Positions 1,697 to 63,762 of a stretch of 64,000 nt of DNA are shown here, in pieces. The translations under genes and the position numbers were made by a program. Each line of letters starts with the position of its first letter. Positions within the stretch are counted from its first letter, which is position 1. The notes below the pieces were generated by a model, which did not search any database, was not told the origin of the DNA, and saw nothing but the letters and a program-made list of their open reading frames with translations. This stretch comes from Haplodiscus bocki. Taxonomy: Eukaryota. The DNA lies in assembly GCA_965655095.1 (NCBI GenBank), contig OZ296654.1, positions 76,880,001 to 76,944,000 on the forward strand, given 5' to 3'.

Positions 1697-1793
1697 CACA
1701 CATTCGAGGTACTATCCATGAGTTTTCTAATGCATAGCCTAATTGTTGACAAACTTATTAAATAGCTTCGGCTGTTTAATAAGTCAACTTCAG
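1697..1793 (+). other. Structured 5' leader, copy 1 (spliced-leader-like)
   Basis: Two hairpins: an imperfect stem at about 1707-1740, and a 14-bp stem (1753-1766 with 1771-1784) closed by a C(UUCG)G loop. Ends in CTTCAG 8 nt before the ORF1 ATG. Shared with 59472-59529 and 59853-59899. Confidence 0.75.
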
Positions 1794-1801
1794 ATCTTTC
1801 G

Positions 1802-2614
1802 ATGCCTCCAAAACGAGCAAAAGCGAGTGTCTCTGATGACAAAGCAAAACACTCAAGATGTGGCCAATGTGAGAAGGAAATAGCAGAGCACGTGGATCCT
1901 TGTATCATGTGCGATGAATGCAGCAGATGGTTCCATGGCGCCTGCGTGTCTCTTTCTTCCGAGGACATCAGGGTGCTGGGGAGGATATCAAACTGCCGCT
2001 GGTTCTGCGATTCTTGTCTTCCACAGACGAAAACAGTCGAGGAACTGGCCAAACAAACTCGAAAGCTAAGTTCCATTGTCAATGACTTACAAACCTCCAT
2101 TACGAAAATTCCGCCTATCGAACTGTCCGATAAAAAAGGAATACAAAATGTAGAAAAGGTATCTCCATCAAAAAAGATTGATGAATACCAATACGAGGTC
2201 CGAGTAAGTGGGATTCCAGAAAACAATGAAGCAAGTCGAATCAAACGTCAGTTCAAAGATAAAGAAGAAGTTGAGAACGTCTGCTCGTCAATCGGATGTA
2301 CATATCCGATTAAAGAATGCAGACGCATTGGGAAATTTGTTGATGGCAGAACCAGAAAACTGCTCGTTACCTTTAATTCTGTCTGGGATGCCAGAGCGCT
2401 GGTAGCAAAGGCTTCTGAAAAGGATTTGTACAAAAACTCACGTGTTCTAATCACGCCTGGCCTGTCAGAGGCAGACGTGAGAAAAGAACAAGTAGTATTG
2501 AAAAATCGATGGGAGTTAATGAATTCTGTAATAAGGAAAGAAGACCTTCGGATACACAAGTTCAGGCTTTACCAATCCACGTCTTCAGGCGAGATAGAGG
2601 TGAAGCTTGATTGA
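1802..2614 (+). CDS. LINE A ORF1: PHD finger, coiled coil and L1/CR1-type C-terminal domain
   Basis: Open 270-aa frame with CGQC...CIMCDECSRWFHGAC...WFCDSC (C4HC3 PHD), then VSGIPE and RRIGK...RKLLVTF motifs typical of CR1/L2 ORF1. Confidence 0.9.
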   Translation: MPPKRAKASVSDDKAKHSRCGQCEKEIAEHVDPCIMCDECSRWFHGACVSLSSEDIRVLGRISNCRWFCDSCLPQTKTVEELAKQTRKLSSIVNDLQTSITKIPPIELSDKKGIQNVEKVSPSKKIDEYQYEVRVSGIPENNEASRIKRQFKDKEEVENVCSSIGCTYPIKECRRIGKFVDGRTRKLLVTFNSVWDARALVAKASEKDLYKNSRVLITPGLSEADVRKEQVVLKNRWELMNSVIRKEDLRIHKFRLYQSTSSGEIEVKLD

Positions 2615-5432
2615 CAACCAACTCTCTGCAAATTATCATTGAAACTATTTTACCCAAATTCGCAAGGCCTTCTATCTCTTGAAAGACGACTGAAAGTTCT
2701 CAATAAATTTTTGTTGAGTACTTGTAGCTACCTGTTCGTTACTGAAACATGGTTCGATAGTCAAACAAGTTCAGTGGTTTTCCCCAACAACACTCCAGCT
2801 CAAATTTGCCGTTCCGATAGAAGCTTGGGAATACATGGTGGTACAGCAGTGTTTGGGTGGGATCCCAGCAAGTCTACTACGTTAACATCTCAGTTCGACT
2901 GTGGTTGCTCTACGGTAATTGAAGGTATTCTAAACTTGCTGATATACAACCCGCCAATTAGCAGTGAATACCGGATCTCTGATAACCGGCTAATGAATTT
3001 CATACAAGAATCTCTTCGGCAATACTCCTGGTCAACTGACGACAAAATATTTCTGATTGGCGACTTCAATTTTCCTGGATTTGATTGGTCATCTTTACCA
3101 TTCAATGATATTCCCAATTATCCTATTTTATCCTCCTTTCTATTGACAAACGGCTTTAACCAATATGTGGACATTGTTACTAACAAGTCTGGGAATACCC
3201 TGGACGTTTTTCTTTGTAACTTTCAAGTTTGTGTCTCCATCGAATCAGAGTTTTGTGACCACTCTGATCATGCTTTGCTACACTTCACACTCTCAACACA
3301 ACATTTACTCCCGGTCGATGGTATGATGCGTAATTCCAGAAGTAGGCTCGTCCTGAATCCAGAGAGGCTTGAGTATTTGAAACTCGATCTTTCAACCAGT
3401 GTTTTTTCTTTTCAAGATGCAACAGCTGATCTTTTCTATTCACAGAAATGGTTTCGGAATTTGCATCAGATATTGCTGGTTTATATGAAAAAGAAAAAAT
3501 TATATCGCCAGTCTTTACCAAATTATTTCTCGTCACATACGACTCACCTAATGAATTGCTTTTAACCCCGATGCGAAGGGAGTTTGTCAAATCGAAGTAC
3601 CTCGTGATTAAGAGAAATCTTTTGCAGTCAATTGAACTGGACACACAACTGTTCTTCGAAAACTTCCTCAAATTCAATACCAAAATGAACGATATTTTCA
3701 AACTTATCGAATCTCTTCGGATGGAAGATCAGTTCCCCAATGAAATGTTTCATAACAAAAACCAGTTTATTGGACCTTTGGAAATTGCGCAGGAATTCAA
3801 TACTTTCTTCATAAGTCAGTTCACACCATGCGATGGACAATACGGAGACTTCCATCCTTCTGTTCTGAACGAAATTGAATTCTCACTTGAAGAAGTCATT
3901 GAAACGCTTCTTCAAACAAGTGATGGTATGGGTTCTGACAACATGTCAGGCGCAACCATTCGGACAATTGCAACTCCATTGAGTGTACATTTTCTTGGCT
4001 TGGCAAGAAGTATCTTGGAAACTGCGAAATATCCTGATAACTGGAAATTGGTTGATGTAAAACCTCTGCATAAAAAACGAGCAAAGAACATTATATCCAA
4101 TTATCGGCCTGTTGCCAATCTCTCCAGGCTATCATTGAGCTTTGAGAAGCTTCTTTTCAAGCACCTATATAAATATATTGCACCGAAAATAAACTCTTCT
4201 CAGCATGGATTTATGAAGAACCGCTCAATAACTAGTCAACTGCTATTGCATTTAAAGTTACTACACGACTCTCTTGACATAGGCGAAGAAGTTTTTACAC
4301 AATATCTCGATTTCTGCAAGGCTTTCGATAAAGTGAATCATTACCTGCTAATTGAAAAATTAAAAAATTTCGGCAATGGTGGGAAACTTTTGCAACTTCT
4401 ATCATCCTATCTAGAAGATCGATCTCAGCGGACGGTAATAAATAACGTCTATTCCGAGTATTTGCCTATAAACAGTGGAGTTCCACAGGGTTCTGTGCTT
4501 GGGCCTCTGCTGTTTTTTGTTTTTATTAATGACCTTCCGGATGTGCTTGAAACCTCTATTGCTTATCTCTTTGCCGATGACACCAAAATTAACACTACAG
4601 ATCCAGCCTTGCTTCAGAATGATCTTCTTAGACTACATCAATGGTCCTTGGAAAAAAAATGCAGTTCAATTTCATCAAAACAAGTTTAATATGGTTCACA
4701 CTGAAGAGAAAGGACATTTAAGAACAACCTGTATGTGTTTTTGGCGGATAAAACATTTCTTTTACTCGAAAGCCAGTTGTTGATTTGGGAATAGGTTTTT
4801 GTTATAATCTGTCCTGGACTGAGCATATCAAGTCGAAAGTTTGTAAAGCTCATGGTAGATTCATCTCCATCGAACGAAACTTGCCAAACAATCTATCCAC
4901 CAGTCAGAAAGCTTCAGTATATGTTCTTTATTTAAGGCCCTTGATTTTATATGGAACCACTGTCTGGTTCGCAAACAGAACTAATTTGGAAAAGTGGGAA
5001 AGCAGAGTCACGCGTTGGATAACTTCATATGACACGTATAAAGAGCGTCTTATTCAAAGCAACATTCTGCCACTGTCTCTTCTGTTTCAGTTAGAGGATC
5101 TACTAACCTTCAACAAGGTTCTGAATGGAAAGCTTGGCCCTGAAGTTCGGTCCCTGATAGAGCCTTCTAAAGCACCTCAACAAAACCTCCGCGAAACTAG
5201 TTTTCTTCCTTTCAAACTCCAAAAAACAAAACTGAAACTGACAGATTCTAATTTCATCCATCGAGCAACGAGACTTGCGAACTTCGTTTCAATGAAACAC
5301 AATATAAATTTCTATGATCCATGTGAAAAAGTCAAACCCCCTTTCAAATCTCTTTTTTGGAATTATTTCCTTAATTCCTACGAAAGGAAATCATGTGCTT
5401 CTTTCATTCAATGCTATTGCTGTCATCTGTAA
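2615..5432 (+). pseudogene. LINE A ORF2: APE endonuclease plus reverse transcriptase, frameshifted
   Basis: TETW, HGG, YNPP, GDFNFP, GNTLD, SDH (APE); NYRPV, QHGF, YLDFCKAFD, GVPQGSVLGP, FADD (RT); Cys-rich C-terminus. Frame breaks near 3555, 4655 and 4750-4785. Confidence 0.92.
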
Positions 5433-5487
5433 ATAATTAAGTTATTGGTGTCTATTCATTTATGATTACTCATAATTTAAGTCTTTC

Positions 5488-5547
<60 letters not shown>
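5488..5547 (+). repeat. (AGT)20 microsatellite forming the LINE A 3' tail
   Basis: 20 perfect AGT units directly after the 3' UTR. Confidence 0.97.
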
Positions 5548-50400: not shown

Positions 50401-53400
50401 GAAGGTTAACATTTTTTTTATGTTTAAACTGAAATATTTTCCTCATAATGTTTGAAAACGGAGATCCCTGGATTCCAACAGACTCCCCCAACAGTGATTA
50501 CTTGAATTAAAATTGGTATAATGTAACTTAGGACAAAGGTGTTCCAAACCATCAATTTCCAAAACATCCTTCTGCTAAATAATATCCAATTGTAATGTTT
50601 AAATTGAATATATTCACGGATAAGATTTGAAAATGAATATACCTGGCATCCGCCAAATTTTCCGAACTGCAAACAGTTTTATGGAGAACGGATGATTGCA
50701 ATCCTGACAATATTGTTGAAGAGAATATTTTTTTGAGAACATAATTATGCTGAAAATATCTACATGTGGAAATTTCAATTGGATTATTTTCCAGATAATG
50801 CTTGAGAATGGAGATCCTTGGATTCGACTTTCCGAACTGAGGGAATTGCAATTAAATATGAAGATTGGAAATAAAACAGTGTTTAGAAACTCGCTTTCAG
50901 AAACATCATTTTACTGAAGAAATTATCTAAATTTCTGGGTTAAAATTGGAAAACTTTCAGGATAATTTATGAAAACAAGAGATCAGTGGCTCTCAGAGGA
51001 TTTTTTGAACAACGAGTAATTGCATTGAGAGTGGATAATTGAAATTCGATGAAGAATTAATGGAAACTCTAATGTCTCAGGAAAATTTCTGACTATCCAT
51101 TTCAGTGGTCCATCTTTTATTTCGACCTTTCGCCTCATTTTCTACATTAAAACTGCAAAAAGGAGATTTTATCAAATTTTGCGAATTCCCAAAAAACCAA
51201 TGATTATCAGCACGAATTAGCTTGATTACTATTACAGTGAAGTGAGAAGTAGCATGTGCAGTAATGTAACAATAACAAACTTCGAGTTTTCTGAGTTTGT
51301 CTGGGTCAGTTTCGGTCATGAGTCGTTCCTTCTCCTGTCTGACCTTCTCTTCTCTCCTCTGCTGCTGACTCTCTTGTCTCTGTGAGTGCATCATTTTACT
51401 TATCGTCTCTTCCATCTTCACTCGATTTTTCTCGGCTTTTGCTCTTGCCTAACACAATACAACGCAAAATTTTACAACTCGGAAACATCAATCTCATGCG
51501 TTCAAAAAAACTACTAGCTGCAATTTAGATCAAAAAGAGCTGAATTTACGAAAAAAACACGTGGGTCTAAAAGATTTTTGCTCAATTCCGTTGAATATTC
51601 ATACCCCGCACATTATTTGTTTTATCTAAAGCGTTGCAAATGAGAAACTCATTTGCGAAAAAAGTTCATCATTTTTGACAATAAATATAACACATCATTA
51701 AGGCTTGGAATTGATTGCTCAGGGGTTCAGCTGATAATTTACAACTCCCGGCGTTAACTTTGAAGCCAAAGAGCGCTAAAACAGCGCGAATTTAGTCTTG
51801 AAATGCTCGAAGCAACGTCCCTTTCAAAAAGACGAAAGTTGTATTGTTGGCAAAATTGGAAATAAGAACCGAATGTTCCGGATTTTCAGCTTTAACAGGA
51901 GCTGCCTCAAATTTAATAGGAACCTATTATCGGAAAAGATATTCGGCCGCTCTAACACCTGCAAACCACTCATACAAACAAACTCCACTTGAAACGGATA
52001 TTTAGGCCATACTAAACGACCAAGATGTCTACTCACATCTTTGGACAACTTGATTCGTTTCAGTTTGTCAATGAAGTAGATGACTAATTTGAGACAGGGC
52101 AACATCTGAGCCATATCCTCTGGCTGTGCCCTTCCGTATTTGGGCACTGCGAATCTGGCCTGTAACACTTTCATAGTGCTCCCAGCTCCCACAACTGGAG
52201 ATGAACTTCCTGAAGATGAAGATCCCCCGCTACCCCCAGCGCCAGAGTTGGACGATGTGGAGCCAGATGGAGCTGTGGAATCGTCCGGCTTCTTCCCACT
52301 GTACTGGTCAGATATGTGCAAATACTCCAGCAGGTCCGGATACAGTTTCAGAAACTTTTGGAGCTGAAAAGATGAACTAGACAATAAGACAACAGCTGCT
52401 TTTTGGAAAATTGGTTTCAAGGGTGCTAGCTTCCAGATAAAAAGTACAAAGAGAATTCCGGATTAGAATTCAAGAATGAATGCAAGGGTAATATTTGAAA
52501 GCCTCGAAACCTAAAGAAAAGGTTTAGGAAAATGTAGGAACAAAAGTTTCTTTGATTACCAATTACGCGCATTAAGATAGGGTCAGTTCTTTTCACCTTG
52601 TAGAAATGAATTTCCCAGAGTTCAGTCTTCTCAAAAAAAGTGCTGAAAATAAGTTACCGGAGATTTAAAGACATAAAAATTTTCCTCACTTTCCGGTATC
52701 TTCTGTGGTTGTTAAACCAAAATCAACACTAAACTCTATGAATGTTGGACCAATTCAGGTATGCAAAACACAAAGAAAATCTCATGAAAAATTCAGGAAA
52801 CTTTTCCTTTACGGTTTTCCCATTTTGAGATGTGCTCTACACATCCTTAATTTTTGACCAGAATTTCACACATATAAGATCAAAATTGTAAGACAGAATG
52901 AAATAAATCGCAATCGTTACTTCGGAATCGATGATGAAGTCTGCCACTTCGTGGAGTTCTGACGCGTAACAGTAAGCAGGGCACTTGAACCTCTCACAAC
53001 TCTTGCGACCGTCACAAAAACTGCTCTAAACAGAACAAATCAAGAATGTCTCTATGAATACTAAGAATGAAAGTCAAACTTTATAAAAAGGCAGAGTCAA
53101 TTTTCAAGTTTGATAACTGTTTGCGGTAATATTCAATATTACGCTAATGTTAATGTAATACGTTAATGTAAACTTTGGACCACCCGCAATTTAGACTACA
53201 TGGGTGATAAACTATTGTCGTTTAAAACTTGGTAAAAAAATAGTGTAAAACTTTAGAGTATTTAAAAAACATTCTACGATACGAAGCTAGTAACAAAAAA
53301 GTAAGATAATCAATTGAAAGTGAATGCTCCCAACCAAATCTTGCAGCTCTTTCAAGTTTTTCGTGAGAATCTTTTTGGACCCCAATGCAAAGATGAGCGG

Positions 53401-56299
53401 CTCGAAATCTTCATCCAGAGTTACACTAATTTCCTGCAAAGAAGCAAAACATGCAACTGTATTCTAACCAACCAATGAAATTCCGCACTGTCTAGTATAG
53501 ACTTCTTGTAGCAGTGCTAACCATGAGATCACTAGCTGGCTTCAGAAATCGGCTCATCAACGAAATTATGTCTTGCCGCTTCACAAACTAAAACAGACAC
53601 TTCTCAACAATTGCCAAAATAACAATGAAATATAGAAAGCGGGCATTACAGTCGGCCTTTTTTTAAGTGCCCGACCAATGAAGTGATTTTCCTTGTGATT
53701 TTCAAAGGCTTCTTTAATGATTTCTGCCAAAATTCTGCGCTTGCTTAAACTTTACATACAATGCTGAGTTTTCGACAGAATTAAAAGGTTGGAACTAACT
53801 TTTAGGTCTATCAGCATTCCCTGACATCCGAGTCTGCCTGAGCACCAAAGAGAGAACACGTGTTCGCTCTCCTTCATCAACACAGGCGAGTACTTGTCAC
53901 TTGTGACTGTGGCCACTTCCTTGGCGGTTCCGTCGTCTCCCACCACCGAAAAATTGCGTTCCAAAGTACCGCGCGTTGCTTCCAACCTAACAAATCAAAG
54001 CCTGTTAATAATCCCTTTTCTACTCTTGCCCAAAAGCGTCAAATGTGGAGTGAAGCTTAGTTTCCACCCCATACAAGGCGATAAATTGATGTCCTTCCAT
54101 TGTGAGGCGGGAATGAAAAGCTTCAACGGGGAGAATTTGAGACAAAAGGAAAGGCTTCCAAGTAACATCTGCCGCACTAACCATGCAGAAGCGAGTTTTT
54201 GGTTTTTCTGTCTGCCGTAGATGAAATTGAGCGCATAGGAAACAAGTCCGATGAGGAGAAGGAACTCTAGGTAGAACCCGTCCCATTTAGTCCTCAGGTG
54301 TTCTGGCACGTCAATCACTTTAAGGCCGTCAACTCCTCCTGCCCCTCCAGACCCTCTCTTAGTCGTCTGTCTTTGATGACCAGTTCCTCCTTTGCCTTCG
54401 AGTCCTCCCACACCACCAAGCGCCTCCATTGAAGGTATGGAAGAGTCACGCTGAAGCAAAATGAACAATTCAGTCATTTTTGTTTTGCAATGACCCGTTT
54501 CGTCATACTAAGGTGCACCTATGTACGAATTGTTTTAGGTAAATCAACAAACCATCCCACAGACTGGAGTAACTTGAGTTTTGCCTCGAAATAATTTCTA
54601 TCACAAGCGAATCCACTTTTGCTCAAAATTTCCGCTATTTTGCAAATAAATCCACATAAATTTTCAATTTCTTTGTTTTAATCATTCTATCAACTCTTCC
54701 ATTCAACATATCTTCTTGCTCCACATCCATCATGTTGACGCAAAAAATCATCTCCACCCCGATGATTTCCTATCAAAGCTCAGCTAGCTAATTGACAAAA
54801 TTTCAGGTGGGCGCTTTATGAAATGAAGATGTAGTCGGTGTTTTCTGAATTAAAGATGCCGACTATTACAGTTTCGTTTTTATCGTAAGACATTTCTCTC
54901 ACTTCGAATCGATCCAATTTTAAAACTTTGGTCAATTCTAATTCTTGATGGGAAGAATTGTACCATAGCTTCCAAAACTTCAAAAATCGAAAAAAGTTCG
55001 TGATAGCTGCATTTGCCTATGCTGAAAATTTTGGGAAAAGCACAAACGAAAACATTTTGTAATAAACCAGTTTTGCAAAAAACGGGACATTTTCGAAAAG
55101 CAAACGCCAAAAAAATTGCAATACCCCTTAGTTTCTCCTCGATTATCCGTCAATTCTGCCAGCATGCTTTTCGCCTGAAGTAAATAACCGCCAAAATCGA
55201 TTATACGCCAAATCGGCAAACAATGTTTTTCACGTTTCCTGTTGAAAATAAGACAATCGAAATCAAGTACACTTCCAGTCAACCAACGCCCTCCTTTTTC
55301 CCAGCCAAAAATTGCTGCACCAATGCTTCCGGAAAATCGAGGATTACTATACTTCTCTGTGGTACACAAAGTTTTCTCGAAAAAGAACTTCAAAACAACC
55401 ACCTCCACCATAACTATTTTGAGTCTCACGGATGGTGCCGATTCGGACAATACTTGGCTTGTTACTGTTTACAGAACTAACCTCTTCTTCGACAATAAGG
55501 ACATCGTCGTCTTCATCGGCTTCCTCATCGAATGTTTTGAAATCTTGCATCTCCTCTGCACCTTTGCCTGATTTCACGGAGGAGTGAGCTTGGCCCTGAT
55601 TACCTGAGTCTGCCACCGACTTCAAAGGTCGCTCTCCCATATCTAATGTTTCCTCATCTTCATCAGCATGATGCAGAGAATCCATTAGTACTGCACCTGC
55701 AACAAAAGCAGCGATAAAACCTGAATGAAATTCAATTCCATTTCCTAAACTCAACAATTAATCGCCACTGTTCACATACCGCCAAGCCGTTTGCATCATC
55801 AGAGTCAAACAAATTTTCATGTCATCTCCAGTGGAAAAACGAGAAACTTAGGCTCCAACGCGACAGAGCCTTTGTTTGTTCAGAAACTTATTCCAATACA
55901 TCTGTTCTTTCCAAATGCTCTTTACTTTATCTTCCATTTTGATTTTGGACAAACGTCTTATGGCGATCAAAACAAAAATCGAATGTTCTGACGAAGACTT
56001 CAAGATTAAACTTCCCAAAGCTTAAAAGCATATTTTATAAAGCAGCTTGCATGCCAACCTGGAGACCCTTTATGATGATGCTGGTGGTGGATGGAGGAAG
56101 CCACCCCATCATCAAACTCGTCATCGAACTCGGCAAAATCGTCTTCCACTGAGGTTGCCACAGAGGGAGCAATTCTTCCACTCTTACCATGACTGCTCTG
56201 CTCACTGTGACTGTGCTGGTAGCTGTTCTGGTGCATCTGACCGATAGAGGTCAGCAAGAAAAAGGTACAAGTGATGGCGGTCACAGACAAAATACCCAT
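47416..56299 (-). CDS. CCDC47: CCDC47 (PAT complex subunit / calumin), 10 coding exons, about 582 aa
   Basis: Exons 56299-56059, 55696-55482 (alternative in-frame acceptors at 55720 and 55690), 54450-54182, 53986-53800, 53587-53522, 53433-53335, 53025-52921, 52363-52037, 51448-51281 and 47487-47416. All introns are GT-AG, phases are consistent, total 1749 nt. Signal peptide, acidic lumenal region, TM helix, [45 protein letters not shown] and a C-terminal coiled coil. The start ATG could be slightly further upstream in the same frame. Confidence 0.93.
49080..49905 (+). repeat. Dispersed repeat, copy 2 (inside CCDC47 intron 9)
   Basis: Colinear similarity with 44200-45000. Confidence 0.85.
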
Positions 56300-57974
56300 T
56301 TTTATTCTGAAGCATTTCCGAAAGAGAATTCCTCTGAAGCAAGTATTAAGACCCATATCAGTCGACAACGAATTATTGAACTCTTGGAATTTAGTGCTGG
56401 CGGTATAGTAGGTCATACAACAGCAAAACTGATCATGTCGAAGTATCCAATCATACTTCCTCAATACCAATCGAGTCACATTGAGATGGCAAAACTGTGA
56501 GATGAATACAGTAAATGAAAAATTTAGACTTCTTTCGATCACTCACATGATAGAAGATAAGTATAAACCGAGGTCCTACGGACAATGTAAACTAATGAGG
56601 ACAAAAGTATCACACGACTGCAATAGAAAGGCTTCCCAAATACGTATGCAAATTTTTTTTTCTGAAAAAGATGTTTTTTTTAGAAAATGATTTTTTTTCA
56701 AAATCGGTAAAAGTGGCAAATTTCCTCTAGAATGCGTACCAAAGGACACTTTTTTAAATGTCTCTTTTTACACCTAAATTGAGGTTTTGCATAAAATCAC
56801 GAAATTTTTTAATTTCAAAAATTTGATTCCAAAAAATAAAACTTCCATCCTAAATAGCTTTCTAAACATAGTTGGAGGGCAGAAAATATCCCGATGGTAG
56901 CCGGGTGACTTGTTTTGAAAATTTTACAAATATTTTTTAACTTATGAGCACTACAGTAATCAACCTTTCCTCAGCGACGGATTTGCTTGACAGAGGAAAT
57001 TTTTCCATTATCGAGTTCTGAAATGCAGCTTCTTTGAAATACAACGAACTCATTTGCGATGAAGAAGTTTAGGGTGTTCACGCCAGAAGTGATCGGCAAA
57101 CTCCCGGAATCATTCCGCTTTTCATTTTAGGGAACAACAACCGTAAGTCGAACCACAAATATCAGATGAACTCTCAAAATTTGCCCTAAAAATCAAAAAA
57201 TGGATAATTTGATATTTTTCAATTTTTTTATTCCGTTTGATTTAGTTACTAATTCATGTCCAATTTCATAATAATTCAGGGTTTTTTTGCACAAATCAGA
57301 AAAACTTTAACTTTAGAAAACAATTCTCATAATCTGGACTTATTTTGGTCGATTGTGAAGTTTTCGTCATTTTTTCGCCTTTCATGTCTGGTTTTTCTGT
57401 TGGGATGGCTGGTTCAGTCGCTTGATGGCAACTTCTTGGTCACTTGCATCGTAGTTTGCCCGGATGGGGGCTGGGAGTGCTCTATTCAGTGGGGTCTCCT
57501 CCAAGGTCAATTTCCGTGCGCCCAGCACGGTCGATCTCCGTGGCAGAGTCAAAAATGGATTATCTCAAAAAAACTCTACCTTTCGGGAAGAAAAACAAAA
57601 TTTTGAGTACAGGTACTATATTAGATGGAATCTAGATGAAATTGAAAACTGGCGGAATAAAAATTTGAGAGCGCAATTTTTCCTTATGGTGAATTTGGCA
57701 AATTTCATGTTGAAAAACCTATGTTGGATGAATAATTTCCCTTCCTTATATGAAATACGGGAGGAAAATGACACAGAGGCGAAGCTGTGCTTCACAACAC
57801 TTGCGCCAACAAAATACTAGTGAACAAATCGACGAAATATAACTGATTTTTGAAAGGGCCACAATACTACTAATAACAACTGTACAGAAATTCATTAATT
57901 CTTGTACATTTATATTCAAGTAAGAAATGCTATAAATATTTCATTCGCTTGATATCTTAAAACACTCATCTCAA

Positions 57975-59471: not shown

Positions 59472-59852
59472 AGCCTAATTGTTGTGATAAACTTACATAG
59501 CCTTGTGCTGTTTAATAAGTCAACTTCAGATAAATTGGTTTCCTGGAGAAGTGCTACTGGCTGGAGCTACTGGAACGATCTTCGCAATGAGTAGACCTGC
59601 CAAGGTTGCATCGGTGTCAGCCAGAGACGACAATGGCGAAAAAACAACTGATGAGGATCATGCAAGAGGTGTGATGAGATTGGCAAGGACTGGATGCAAT
59701 ATGATCTATGCCATGCTAGTATCACGATTTTTACTCCGGGTTACCTCTGCCACTTATATTTCAATTGTCGGAAAATACAGCTGAGTATCTCCTGTTTAAA
59801 TGTAAATCTTGCTTTGAGAAGTAGGTTATTCCTGAAACCCCTCGTAAAATTG
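59472..59852 (+). mobile_element. LINE C 5' fragment: leader copy 2 plus frameshifted PHD-finger ORF1
   Basis: Leader at 59472-59529, ATG at 59587, and SCKRCDEIGKDWMQYDLCHA / YHDFYSGL...FKCKSC forming a PHD finger across frameshifts. Interrupted by LINE B. Confidence 0.75.
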
Positions 59853-60088
59853 TTCGAGATACTACTAATTGTTGTGATAAACTTATTAAATAGCTTCAGA
59901 TAAATGAGAGCTTTTGAGTGATATCACACGTTGCCCATTGGACTACCTGCTGGACTACCCACTGCCCACTGGTCTACCCTCTGCCTCACCATCTGTTCTA
60001 TCCACTGGAGTTCTCACCAACTGGGCATCATTTTATTAATATTTAGTTACTGGTATTTTAATTTTACTTACATTCCTTTTATGCAACT

Positions 60089-60891
60089 ATGAACACCCGT
60101 TCTCGAACTGGTTCGACCTCATCTCCATGCAACCAGCAATCATGCCGGAAAGAAGTCAAGGAACGGGGAATTTTATGTGCCCGCTGTGCCAAGTGGTATC
60201 ACGATACCTGTGCTGGCCTGTCCGACGAATCATATAAGGTTAATGGTCAAATACCTGGATGTCTGTGGGTCTGTCCCCCGTGCCTGCCCGTAGCCGAGCA
60301 AATCCTTCGACAACCGCTGGTGGACCCGGAGTTTATACGAACAATTGCAGATGCCTTGAAACCTCTGCATGAGTCAGTCCAATCTCTGAATACGAAGACC
60401 GAAGTCAAGGAATCTGTTCAGGAGGCACTGGGTGAGCTTACACTTTCAACTGCCCCCCGTACTCAGTCTGACGTACGCCTTGAAGTCAGATTTGATGGAA
60501 TACCTGAACCGTCAGGTACAGGAATGCAGAATCTAACTCATGATGAGAACCAGTTGAAAAATGTGTTCCAATTTCTTGGCGAAAGCGACGCCAGTATATC
60601 ATCCGTATCTAGACTTGGGAAGGAAGTTGAAGGTCGTAGCAGGCCCAGAACATTGTGTTGGTGAAGCTTAATACAGAGTGGTCCGTCCGGAAGCTTTTGA
60701 CAAAAGCTAGGAACCTGAAGCAGTATAGTTCCCCGATATTTATGTCACGCATGCTATCGCCGGAGGATCATGAGAAAAAAAAGCTTATCCTGAAAAAGAG
60801 GCGGGAGCTTATAATTCAGGGTACTCCTGCAAAGTAGCTAAAGATCAAAAACCTAAAACTGTTCCACAACAACACTGAAGTACAACTGTGA
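60089..60891 (+). pseudogene. LINE B ORF1 (PHD finger), one frameshift and one premature stop
   Basis: CARCAKWYHDTC...WVCPPC, FDGIPE, RLGK...RPR. Frameshift near 60655, TAG at 60835, natural TGA at 60889-60891 by alignment to LINE A ORF1. Confidence 0.88.
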
Positions 60892-63762
60892 CTATCCTCC
60901 AACCATCTGAGCGTACTTCTCTACAACTGCCAATCATTGATTTCTATCCAACGCAGACTGAAACTCGCCGACTATCTAATAATCCACCAACCAGCAACAG
61001 TGTGTTTAACAGAAACGTGGCTCTCTGATTGCCACTTTGATGTGAACGTCCTTCCAAACTGTAGTTATGGGACAATATCACAGTCGATGAGGAAGTCAGG
61101 CCAACATTGAGGTGTTCTTATAGCTATAAATAACACAGTGGCGAAACGTTATGCTGAGGTGTCGATGCCGGACTGTGACTTTGCCTGTGCTACTCTCCTC
61201 AACTCCGATGCAGGCTTCTGGCTTCTAATTGCAATATACAATCCACCGCGTAATTCAAGTTACTGCTTGGAACCTAATGTTATTACCGGCTGCATAGATC
61301 ATTTCGTATCAACTGCAAGGGGTCTTAACCTCTCAGATGCCCCCATGAAACTTGTCATTGTTGGTGATTTCAACCTCCCACAAGTTAACTGGGTAACATA
61401 TCTTGGTTCAAGCGAGTACTCTCATACTATTCTCAACTATCTTGACTCACACAACCTGATTCAGAACGTAATGGAACCTACACATCGAAGCGGGAATATT
61501 CTAGATTTCGTCTTCGCCGCTGATGGTACAGCTGTAACAGTGGCCAATGTCAATCTTATCTCAGACCATTACCCAATTACCTTTGATCTCGTCCTTGAGC
61601 TTCCAATCATCAGGGGTTCGTCCTCCGTTTCTGTTTATTCCAAATCTTCCTTCAACGAACTCTGTTTTTGGTGGAATCTGTCATTTCTACACAGTTATTG
61701 CGTCTGGAGGAATCCTAATGAGATAACTGTGGGAGACTGGTATTGTCTCTTCAATTACGCCTTAATGAGTTCAATCTCTCTCAAGCGCAAACGTCGTGAA
61801 CTTCCGTATTACTATTCTTCGCACTCAGTTCATCTCCTCAACCAGCAGAGCACGATCACTAGGCATCTGCAGAGACAGTGGACATTGAGGGACGCTCTGG
61901 ATCTTAAGCGTGTTAAGCTTGATGTCACGCGCTCTATTGAATTGGATGAAACGCTGCTCCGATCCGAATTGGGCCCAACGAGTAATTGTTTCCGGTTTCT
62001 GTCAAGCAAGAATAAGCCAATGCCCTCGTGTATGAAACGGCATGACAATGTTGCGTTCTCCGATTCGGACAAAGCCGAGTTATTTAATTCGTATTTCGCT
62101 TCCGTATACAGTGATACCAGTTCCATTGACGCAGTTCACTCAGAGCCATCCAACGGGTCCTCGGGCTCTACTATTCTCCTGCAGGACGTCCCATTTTCAG
62201 TTGATCGTGTTGAGAAACTGTTGTGCAAGATTAATGATAGTTCTACGTACTCGTTTGATCTAGTCCCCCTTTTTGTTCTTCAATCCCAATCATCTAACAT
62301 TTCCACCTCTGTTTTCCCACTCTTTTGCTCCATCCTAAACTGTGCGATATGGCCTGATGTCTGGAAAACCTCTATTATAACTCCTATACATAAAAAAGGT
62401 CGAACAGATGATGTGACAACTTACAGGCCAATTGGTATTCTTCCCAATCCCAAGCTCTCCCTCGTACTCGAGCGCATCTTTTTTGACTTCATATACCCGA
62501 AAGTCCGATCGAAAATTTCCAGGTCTCAGTTCGGTTTTATGTCAAAGAAGTCGACCGTTCCTCAGCTCATAGCCTTCCTTGACAACCTATGCAAGTACTG
62601 TGACGTTAACGAACCGTGTTTTGTCGTCCTTTTTGACATTCAGAAAGCATTCGACACGGTACCGCACTCTCTCTTGATTTCGAAGCTACAGACATACGAG
62701 TTCGATCATAGCTTTCAGATGCTTTTTTCATCGTACCTAACACTCGGACAACAGATGGTCAAATCCAAGGGATGCTTGTCGAGTAAACAAACTATCGGCA
62801 GCGGTATACCCCAAGGCAGCGTGTTGGGCCCGCTGCTGTTCCTACTTTTTGTTAACGATATGCCTGATGTTGTCGTCCTTTCAAACTGTTTCTTGTTCGC
62901 CGACGACTGTAAAGTACAGGGTTCCAACCCAACTTTGGTACAAAACGACATCAACTCTCTAGTAAGCTGGTGCTTGAGGAACAACACGAGGTTTCATCCG
63001 CAGAAAACCCAAGTCCTTTGTTTTGGCAGTACGCATCAATTCCTCCTAAGCCAGAAACCAATTAAGACCGTCGCAACAATCGACGACCTAGGCATCCGTG
63101 TGAGCAGCAACCTCTCATGGAATGCACATGTAGACTGGAAGATCGGTAAGGCGTCGCGTGCTCTATTCAACATTCGCAGCTGTATACCTTTTACAACCAA
63201 CCCAGAGACGAAATTGCGCCCTATTAATTCCCTCTTCCTCCCTATTCTTCTGTAAGGATCCCAAGCATGGTGTCCTAGTATTACATCCATTCGCTCTCTC
63301 ATGACAAACCACTTCAGATGCCTAAAATGGGTTGTTGGCTCTAGCATGGATTACAAGACTTGTCTACAATGACCAAACTCTCTACCTAACTGTTATCAGC
63401 TGATTCTGAGCGACCAAACACATCTTTGGAAAATTTTTCATAATCACCTTGACATCAACTTACCAGATTATATTCAGCTGAATTCTGGCTACTCATTAGT
63501 AAACCGACATCGGCGCACCTTCATCATAAAACACTGTAAGAAGAGAAAAACTGAGGAGTCATTCTTTACTAGAGCGTCTGCACAAGCAAATTATCTTGCT
63601 CTCAGAAATGTTGACATCCCTGATCCCAGCTTCGGGACTTACCGCAAAAATTTTTTATCTTATCTTCATCTACAAGTCTCCGAAAAAGTTAACCTAATTA
63701 ATTCATGTTCATTTCACATCAACTGCTCTTGTTCATTCTGTAGAATGCGTCCACTCGCTTAG
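60892..63762 (+). pseudogene. LINE B ORF2: APE endonuclease plus RT, with in-frame stops
   Basis: YNCQSL, TETW, YNPP, GDFNLP, GNILD, SDH, YRPI, QFGF, FDIQKAFD, GIPQGSVLGP, FADD and C-terminal CSFHINCSCSFC. Stops at 61108, 63253 and 63370, all in a single frame. Confidence 0.92.

Follow-up and report, generated by a model that had tools for sequence, protein, structure and literature searches.

Results

A LINE whose two reading frames are separated by one UGA

The window analysed here is a 64,000-nucleotide stretch of the Haplodiscus bocki genome (assembly GCA_965655095.1, contig OZ296654.1, positions 76,880,001 to 76,944,000 of the forward strand). Near its start, at 1737-5547 on the plus strand, lies a full-length long interspersed nuclear element (LINE), designated LINE A, in which the two open reading frames (ORFs) share one frame and are separated by a single UGA codon. 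The element opens with the host spliced-leader exon (1737-1765), which matches a published acoel leader and has a 2-nucleotide deletion in this copy, and continues with a short 5' untranslated region (UTR; 1766-1801) that holds two further AG acceptors. ORF1 (1802-2611) starts with the ATG at 1802 and encodes 270 amino acids comprising a PHD finger detected by Pfam (E=3.7e-6), a helical region, and predicted RRM-like and C-terminal domains delineated with AlphaFold and an alignment with seven other families; the RRM-like fold is a prediction read from the secondary structure of the model only.

The junction at 2609-2623 reads GAT TGA CAA CCA ACT. The TGA (2612-2614), which is likely a readthrough codon given its conservation among copies and families, is the only stop between ORF1 and the endonuclease frame (2615-3565), and the six letters that follow it, CAA CCA (2615-2620), match the CAR-YYA readthrough hexamer. 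ORF2 starts with a linker of 8-9 codons that leads into an APE endonuclease (Pfam Exo_endo_phos_2). Counted in codons from the stop, the TETW, HGG and YNPP motifs fall at 43, 74 and 111, the first methionine at 127 and GDFN at 149. A preliminary description of this DNA had proposed that ORF1 and an ATG-less ORF2 are in frame across one UGA-CAA and that the first ORF2 methionine comes only after the TETW, HGG and YNPP motifs, and both proposals are exact.

The remainder of ORF2, with the reverse transcriptase (Pfam RVT_1, E=5.7e-23) and the C-terminus, occupies 3430-5432. The window copy is broken within ORF2, where the frame changes near 3560 and at 4660-4750, and its motif I holds a private substitution, with TAC CCA in place of the TAC CTA found in 26 of the 29 other copies. 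The 3' UTR and an (AGT)n tail fill 5433-5547, and copies L137 and L138 end in the same tail.

The order of APE endonuclease and reverse transcriptase in ORF2 identifies the element as a LINE, and a structure comparison pairs its endonuclease with those of L1 and with AP endonucleases. Copies of LINE A are dispersed on at least 11 large contigs; they end in an (AGT)n 3' tail, have flanks unlike one another and carry no long terminal repeats (LTRs). ORF1 combines a PHD finger with a predicted RRM-type domain and has no CCHC gag knuckles, as in the CR1/L2 lineages of the Jockey superfamily, and the ORF2 pieces gave no Pfam match to RNase H. The domain set thus suggests a CR1/L2-type element, an assignment made by domains, as the tree described below carries no named CR1 or L2 reference elements.

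Conservation of the junction within family A

Family A was represented by the best 30 of 40 scored copies, drawn from 92 candidates. TGA CAA is present in all 30, so the junction seen in the window is not a private mutation, and TGA CAA CCA is present in 29. The chance of a fit to CAR-YYA is about 0.0025 at the base composition of LINE A. In about a dozen copies 942-943 codons stay open, and in both of those examined the open frame begins right after the TGA. ORF2 variants common to at least three copies are enriched in synonymous changes (36 synonymous and 28 non-synonymous, compared with 144 and 367 among private variants; p=1.2e-5), which shows that family A has transposed with a selected ORF2 behind this stop. 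Four sequence runs, which consist of contigs of unknown kind and so are silent on RNA, held no other letter or joint at the stop.

Conservation of the junction across LINE families

Protein searches started from four families gathered 14 callable LINE families in this genome, with endonucleases that are about 26-46% identical. A fifteenth family (L250, L255, L256) had decayed too far for its junction to be called, and L126 was assigned to no family. The preliminary description had suggested examining whether the frame and UGA-C are conserved across related families, and an in-frame TGA-C occurs at the junction in 14/14: TGA-CTA in 11, TGA-CTT in two and TGA-CAA-CCA in LINE A. Five of these families (J-N) were fetched after the in-frame TGA-C pattern had been predicted. 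No ATG precedes endonuclease motif I in 13 of the 14 families.

The second of these families is also found in the window. LINE B, whose endonuclease is only 26% identical to that of LINE A, has a sequence match to the spliced leader at its 5' end (59865-59893, plus strand) and an in-frame TGA CTA junction between ORF1 and ORF2 (60889-60894, plus strand), and TGA CTA is kept in 13 of its 15 junction-spanning copies. Among families C-I, 38 of 42 assignable copies have TGACTA, and the four exceptions are all unlike one another. The surroundings of the junction are far less uniform. The length of the ORF1 tail varies by up to about 20 residues among families, the distance from the stop to the motif-I asparagine ranges from 9 to 15 codons in nine families, and at least two families (G, L144; I, L148) have an ORF1 N-terminus without a PHD finger (no Pfam match) and the same junction. 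Families J-N share the junction and likewise appear to have an ORF1 N-terminus without a PHD finger. Between families, only the frame, the identity of the stop and the next letters stay constant. As a control, ORF2 itself ends in TAA in five of seven families and in TGA-T in the other two, which leaves TGA-C in 0/7.

Spliced leader and form of the mRNA

The same sequence of about 31 nucleotides opens at least 10 divergent LINE families and matches the published leader of an acoel worm (PMC9911081). The leader followed by GT has 695 exact matches in the genome, including a tandem array with a GTAAGT donor, in which the leader gene recurs about every 1.7-2.6 kb (G000:C9:72.47-72.65 Mb; L269, L270). 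It stands at the start of 28 of the 30 family A copies, which have unrelated flanks, and in two copies (L017, L020) it is joined at the downstream AG acceptors of the 5' UTR. The leader is therefore at the 5' end, encoded apart with a GT donor and joined at AG acceptors, as in spliced-leader trans-splicing. Since the copies start with the leader and use alternative acceptors, they are cDNAs of trans-spliced mature mRNA.

The mRNA recorded by these copies still holds the UGA (30/30 in family A). Within 30 nucleotides of the junction there were no matches to the leader in family A or in family C, compared with 42 exact matches at the family A 5' end. There is no AG between the LINE A stop and motif I, and the leader contains no ATG. 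Retention of the UGA together with the absence of leader joins at the junction speaks against the stop being edited, spliced out as an intron or avoided in an mRNA with ORF2 alone. In L1, LINE proteins copy the RNA that encoded them (cis-preference), and if cis-preference holds here, the ORF2 protein would be made from RNA that still carries the UGA.

Two side observations concern the leader. It ends in AG and could act as an acceptor in the next cycle. Dispersed leader-started sequences also occur outside the array (L257, L258, L263-L265), and these are possibly retro-copied host mRNAs or other elements.

Structure model of the predicted fusion

ORF1 and the endonuclease were modelled with AlphaFold as one chain in which the stop was read as tryptophan (mean predicted local distance difference test score 74; predicted template modelling score 0.47). 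The stop is residue 271 of the model and is followed by a low-confidence linker (272-278), so placed that both lie between the last strand of ORF1 and strand beta-1 of the endonuclease (281-286). By this model, the fusion is plausible.

Junctions of LINEs from metagenomes

For comparison with more distant elements, the best 80 of 197 confirmed metagenome loci were scored. One in-frame locus that was 93-98% identical to a family of this genome (L198) was dropped from the comparison of stop codons below, as were two duplicates. No usable upstream ORF was present at 26 loci; the 54 with a long upstream ORF comprised 26 with a +1 overlap, 17 with a -1 overlap, five in frame with one stop and six others. 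In-frame single-stop junctions have TGA in 4/4 and overlaps in 5/41, and TGA-C occurs in 3/4 and 1/41, respectively (Fisher p=0.0011, with kinship ignored and with the six other loci left out; the loci set aside, together with those that have no usable upstream ORF, include L231, which has TGA CTA G and a decayed ORF1). About 20 of 24 +1 overlaps have their own methionine near or before the endonuclease, which is absent from the in-frame elements.

In a quick 38-row tree, the seven families of this genome that were placed form one clade, and the in-frame state needs five changes, at least four of which are forced by supported branches. Phase is thus not fixed among CR1/L2-type LINEs, and the in-frame state goes with UGA-CU and no AUG: among distant LINEs, +1 and -1 overlaps are commoner than in-frame junctions, and the in-frame ones are mostly UGA-CU. 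The preliminary description had reasoned that a random ORF1/ORF2 phase or an ATG at the ORF2 start in related families would speak against readthrough. The families of this genome are in frame and only family H has an ATG before motif I, whereas the distant LINEs vary in phase.

Several further observations were made on these comparators. L231 is in frame with an extra ORF1 stop, and L192, in which ORF1 ends in TGA CTA, was scored +1 and may be in frame with an indel; both are decayed. LINEs with a -1 overlap often have no early methionine (L157, L169, L171, L189, L202, L211 and others) and are candidates for -1 frameshifting. A slippery heptamer stands in the correct frame of the overlap in 10 of the 17, A AAA AAC in six of them, as counted without a chance control. 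The top matches to Pfam PF14529 were rejected as comparators because they are mostly single-ORF elements with a 2A-like peptide and so have no junction. Scans of viral contigs revealed no relatives. Among 103 protein matches of 501-1656 amino acids there was one clear natural ORF1-ORF2 fusion, P0015, a close family C copy with tryptophan at the stop, which is best read as decay.

Other features of the window and the genome

Just upstream of LINE B, positions 59490-59800 hold a fragment with the LINE A 5' UTR block followed by a decayed PHD-like ORF1 start. Exons of the host CCDC47 gene, which encodes a PAT complex subunit (Pfam PF07946), lie on the minus strand at 51824-56542. Several abundant single-ORF non-LTR families elsewhere in the genome (L047-L076, L077, L078) have a 2A-like (NPGP) peptide before zinc fingers and an endonuclease, which is another recoding strategy in the same genome.

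Discussion

The way in which LINEs translate ORF2 has long been an open question, and reinitiation is the mechanism in those cases that have been worked out. The junction of LINE A suggests a different answer, namely that the endonuclease and reverse transcriptase are probably made as an ORF1-ORF2 fusion through programmed readthrough of the stop codon. The preliminary description had proposed such a fusion, and the conservation of an in-frame TGA-C across families supports it. The sequences establish the layout, its conservation and the form of the mRNA, and the decoding step and the fusion protein are deduced from them. In the proposed mechanism, ribosomes would start at the ORF1 AUG of the leader-capped mRNA, and most would terminate at the UGA to give abundant ORF1 protein. 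A few per cent would instead insert an amino acid by means of a near-cognate tRNA and continue, giving one PHD-RRM-endonuclease-reverse transcriptase protein of about 1,213 amino acids. A high ratio of ORF1 to ORF2 product could thereby be set from a single mRNA.

The letters around the stop are those of known readthrough signals. UGA-CUA is the type II signal, found in alphaviruses and in vertebrate OPRL1 and AQP4 (PMC13517186, PMC4132726), and UAG-CAR-YYA is the type I signal of tobacco mosaic virus, which works without downstream structure and is listed for plant viruses only in the account cited (PMC13517186). In HEK-293T reporters, UGA-CUA alone gave 1.5% readthrough, and UGA-CARYYA in the OPRL1 context gave about 15%, with all six letters mattering (PMC4132726). 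An exact published motif is present in 12 of the 14 families, the remaining two having UGA-CUU. The preliminary description had attributed leakiness to UGA followed by C; the context here is more specific, UGA-CAA-CCA of the CAR-YYA type in LINE A and UGA-CUA in most sister families. That LINE A would have left UGA-CUA yet landed on CAR-YYA is the most telling single point, though it is one event. The signal appears to consist of the six letters after the stop rather than a 3' RNA structure.

Several observations weigh against readthrough. Families L and M have CTT instead of CTA, family L resting on one of two copies, and CUU after UGA is outside the published readthrough signals; L212, an in-frame metagenome element, has TGA-AGT. 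No 3' stem-loop was shared among nine families, in eight of which the folding z-score was near 0 (LINE A reached z=-2.0 in one window, one of 36 tests). In ORF1, the test for purifying selection that was significant for ORF2 was not (p=0.40). The 14 families share an ancestor, as the single clade formed by the seven on the tree illustrates, and the Fisher test on the metagenome loci ignores kinship of this kind; TGA-C goes with the in-frame state in three to four of four independent pairs and never the reverse, which are too few for significance (p=0.125). The argument from the form of the mRNA leans on cis-preference, which is assumed by analogy with L1. Finally, a near-cognate start codon precedes the motif-I asparagine in nine of nine families checked, TTG at codon 9 in LINE A, and family H has an ATG at codon 7 (L145, L150), inside strand beta-1, yet keeps TGA CTA G. 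A start at the LINE A TTG would also be predicted to keep beta-1, so that the structure model does not separate readthrough from reinitiation.

These start codons favour the one live rival, that ribosomes reinitiate independently of AUG just 3' of the UGA and yield ORF2 protein on its own, a route proposed for mammalian L1. Reviews document reinitiation as a route in SART1 and L1, and we regard it here as unlikely but worth keeping in play. An AUG near the ORF1 stop in the ORF2 frame, on which AUG-dependent termination-reinitiation would rely, is absent from LINE A, and only family H has one before motif I. Reinitiation needs no shared frame, and after a long ORF the next start codon usually lies in another frame (PMC10275272); it leaves unexplained both the UGA in 14/14 families and the switch between two readthrough motifs. 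Moreover, the near-cognate codons have neither position nor identity in common, and the only one in family C, directly before the asparagine, would lose beta-1. We consider it very improbable that the junction is a legacy of descent with no role as a signal, or that a constraint on the protein, such as leucine at the first ORF2 position, preserves it. The single clade of the seven families is what inheritance would give, but with proteins 26-46% identical, neutral positions should be saturated, the neighbouring codons and lengths differ, and the stops of ORF2 are not conserved. A need for leucine would not account for the codon choice, CTA in 11 of the 13 families with leucine and TTR in none, nor for glutamine in LINE A.

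RNA processing might instead remove or bypass the stop, if internal trans-splicing yielded an mRNA with ORF2 alone, if a cis-intron were removed or if the UGA were edited to a sense codon. The host does trans-splice these RNAs, and a sense codon replaces the stop in single copies (L034, L042, L130, L244, P0015). However, retro-copies record processed RNA, yet all 30 family A copies hold TGA; leader joins at the junction number zero in two families, no acceptor lies between the LINE A stop and motif I, and no ATG comes with the leader. The sense-codon copies are unlike one another (TCA, TGG, AGA), as decay predicts, and we consider processing of this kind highly unlikely. Decoding of the UGA as selenocysteine would account for the stop always being UGA. 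No selenocysteine insertion sequence (SECIS) element was matched in Rfam at E<=1 in five full-length elements, a search that a divergent SECIS could escape; the 3' UTRs are short and dissimilar, and the codon is predicted to lie beside a linker rather than at a catalytic site, which leaves selenocysteine with scarcely any probability.

Taken with readthrough as the favoured explanation, the findings incline us, with some reserve, towards a broader view. These elements may be a lineage of animal LINEs with a virus-like programme, in which host trans-splicing supplies a promoter-poor RNA with a spliced-leader cap and reverse transcriptase is made only as an uncleaved readthrough fusion. Individual lineages would swap UGA-CUA and CAR-YYA, and across CR1/L2-type LINEs there would be repeated changes between readthrough, AUG reinitiation and -1 frameshifting. 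The spliced-leader start suggests how such elements may manage without a promoter of their own. If readthrough is indeed used, the enzyme would act as a fusion protein with RNA-binding and PHD modules of its own, which would change the view of particle assembly and targeting. Annotation pipelines would truncate such ORF2s at a late methionine or call the stop a defect. A six-letter signal shared across 14 divergent families makes this answer directly testable.

Comparison with known systems

Most likely, LINE A represents a known recoding mechanism in a class of elements where it has barely been proposed. Conserved UGA-CUA or CAR-YYA junctions in animal LINEs turned up nowhere in our literature search, and neither did acoel LINEs capped by a spliced leader; Repbase reports, subscription journals and bioRxiv supplements were outside the search, and an earlier mention is quite possible. 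LINE A resembles the CR1/L2 lineages of the Jockey superfamily (PMC4120745) in its PHD-containing ORF1, its ORF2 with APE endonuclease and reverse transcriptase and its microsatellite tail, and the terms "stop codon" and "in frame" are absent from the main text of that survey.

Among LINEs with known ORF2 translation, L1 and SART1 use termination-reinitiation (PMC5972666, PMC5009743, PMC10275272), and Zorro3 requires its ORF2 ATG (PMC1965478). L1 and SART1 share with LINE A a bicistronic mRNA and little ORF2 protein. In those two elements, however, ORF2 has its own AUG, which follows a spacer or overlaps the ORF1 stop, whereas here there is no spacer, and no AUG in 13 of 14 families. A close parallel among LINEs is Group 3 of the non-LTR elements of Paramecium tetraurelia, for which consensus sequences led to the proposal that the stop of ORF1 is read through (PMC5405496). 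It too has ORF1 and ORF2 in frame across one stop, while its sister groups use a +1 overlap. Group 3 belongs to a separate ciliate clade; the present elements have an animal host, are of CR1/L2 type and show two motifs over 14 families.

The preliminary description had likened LINE A to gammaretroviral gag-pol. The likeness stands in that a structural protein and an enzyme are in frame across one stop, an arrangement that fixes their ratio and is shared with Tca2, a Candida LTR element in which gag and pol are parted by UGA with a potential 3' pseudoknot (PMC2194720). Gammaretroviruses use UAG-G with a pseudoknot (PMC13517186), and because no conserved 3' structure was found here, alphaviruses, tobacco mosaic virus and Tca2 are closer parallels. 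LINE A further differs from both gammaretroviruses and Tca2 in that no protease domain that might cut the fusion was detected in ORF2. As for the type I and type II signals themselves, the letters after UGA fit CAR-YYA in LINE A, the context is UGA-CUA in 11 sister families, and both would operate here, judging from sequence, in a non-LTR retrotransposon.

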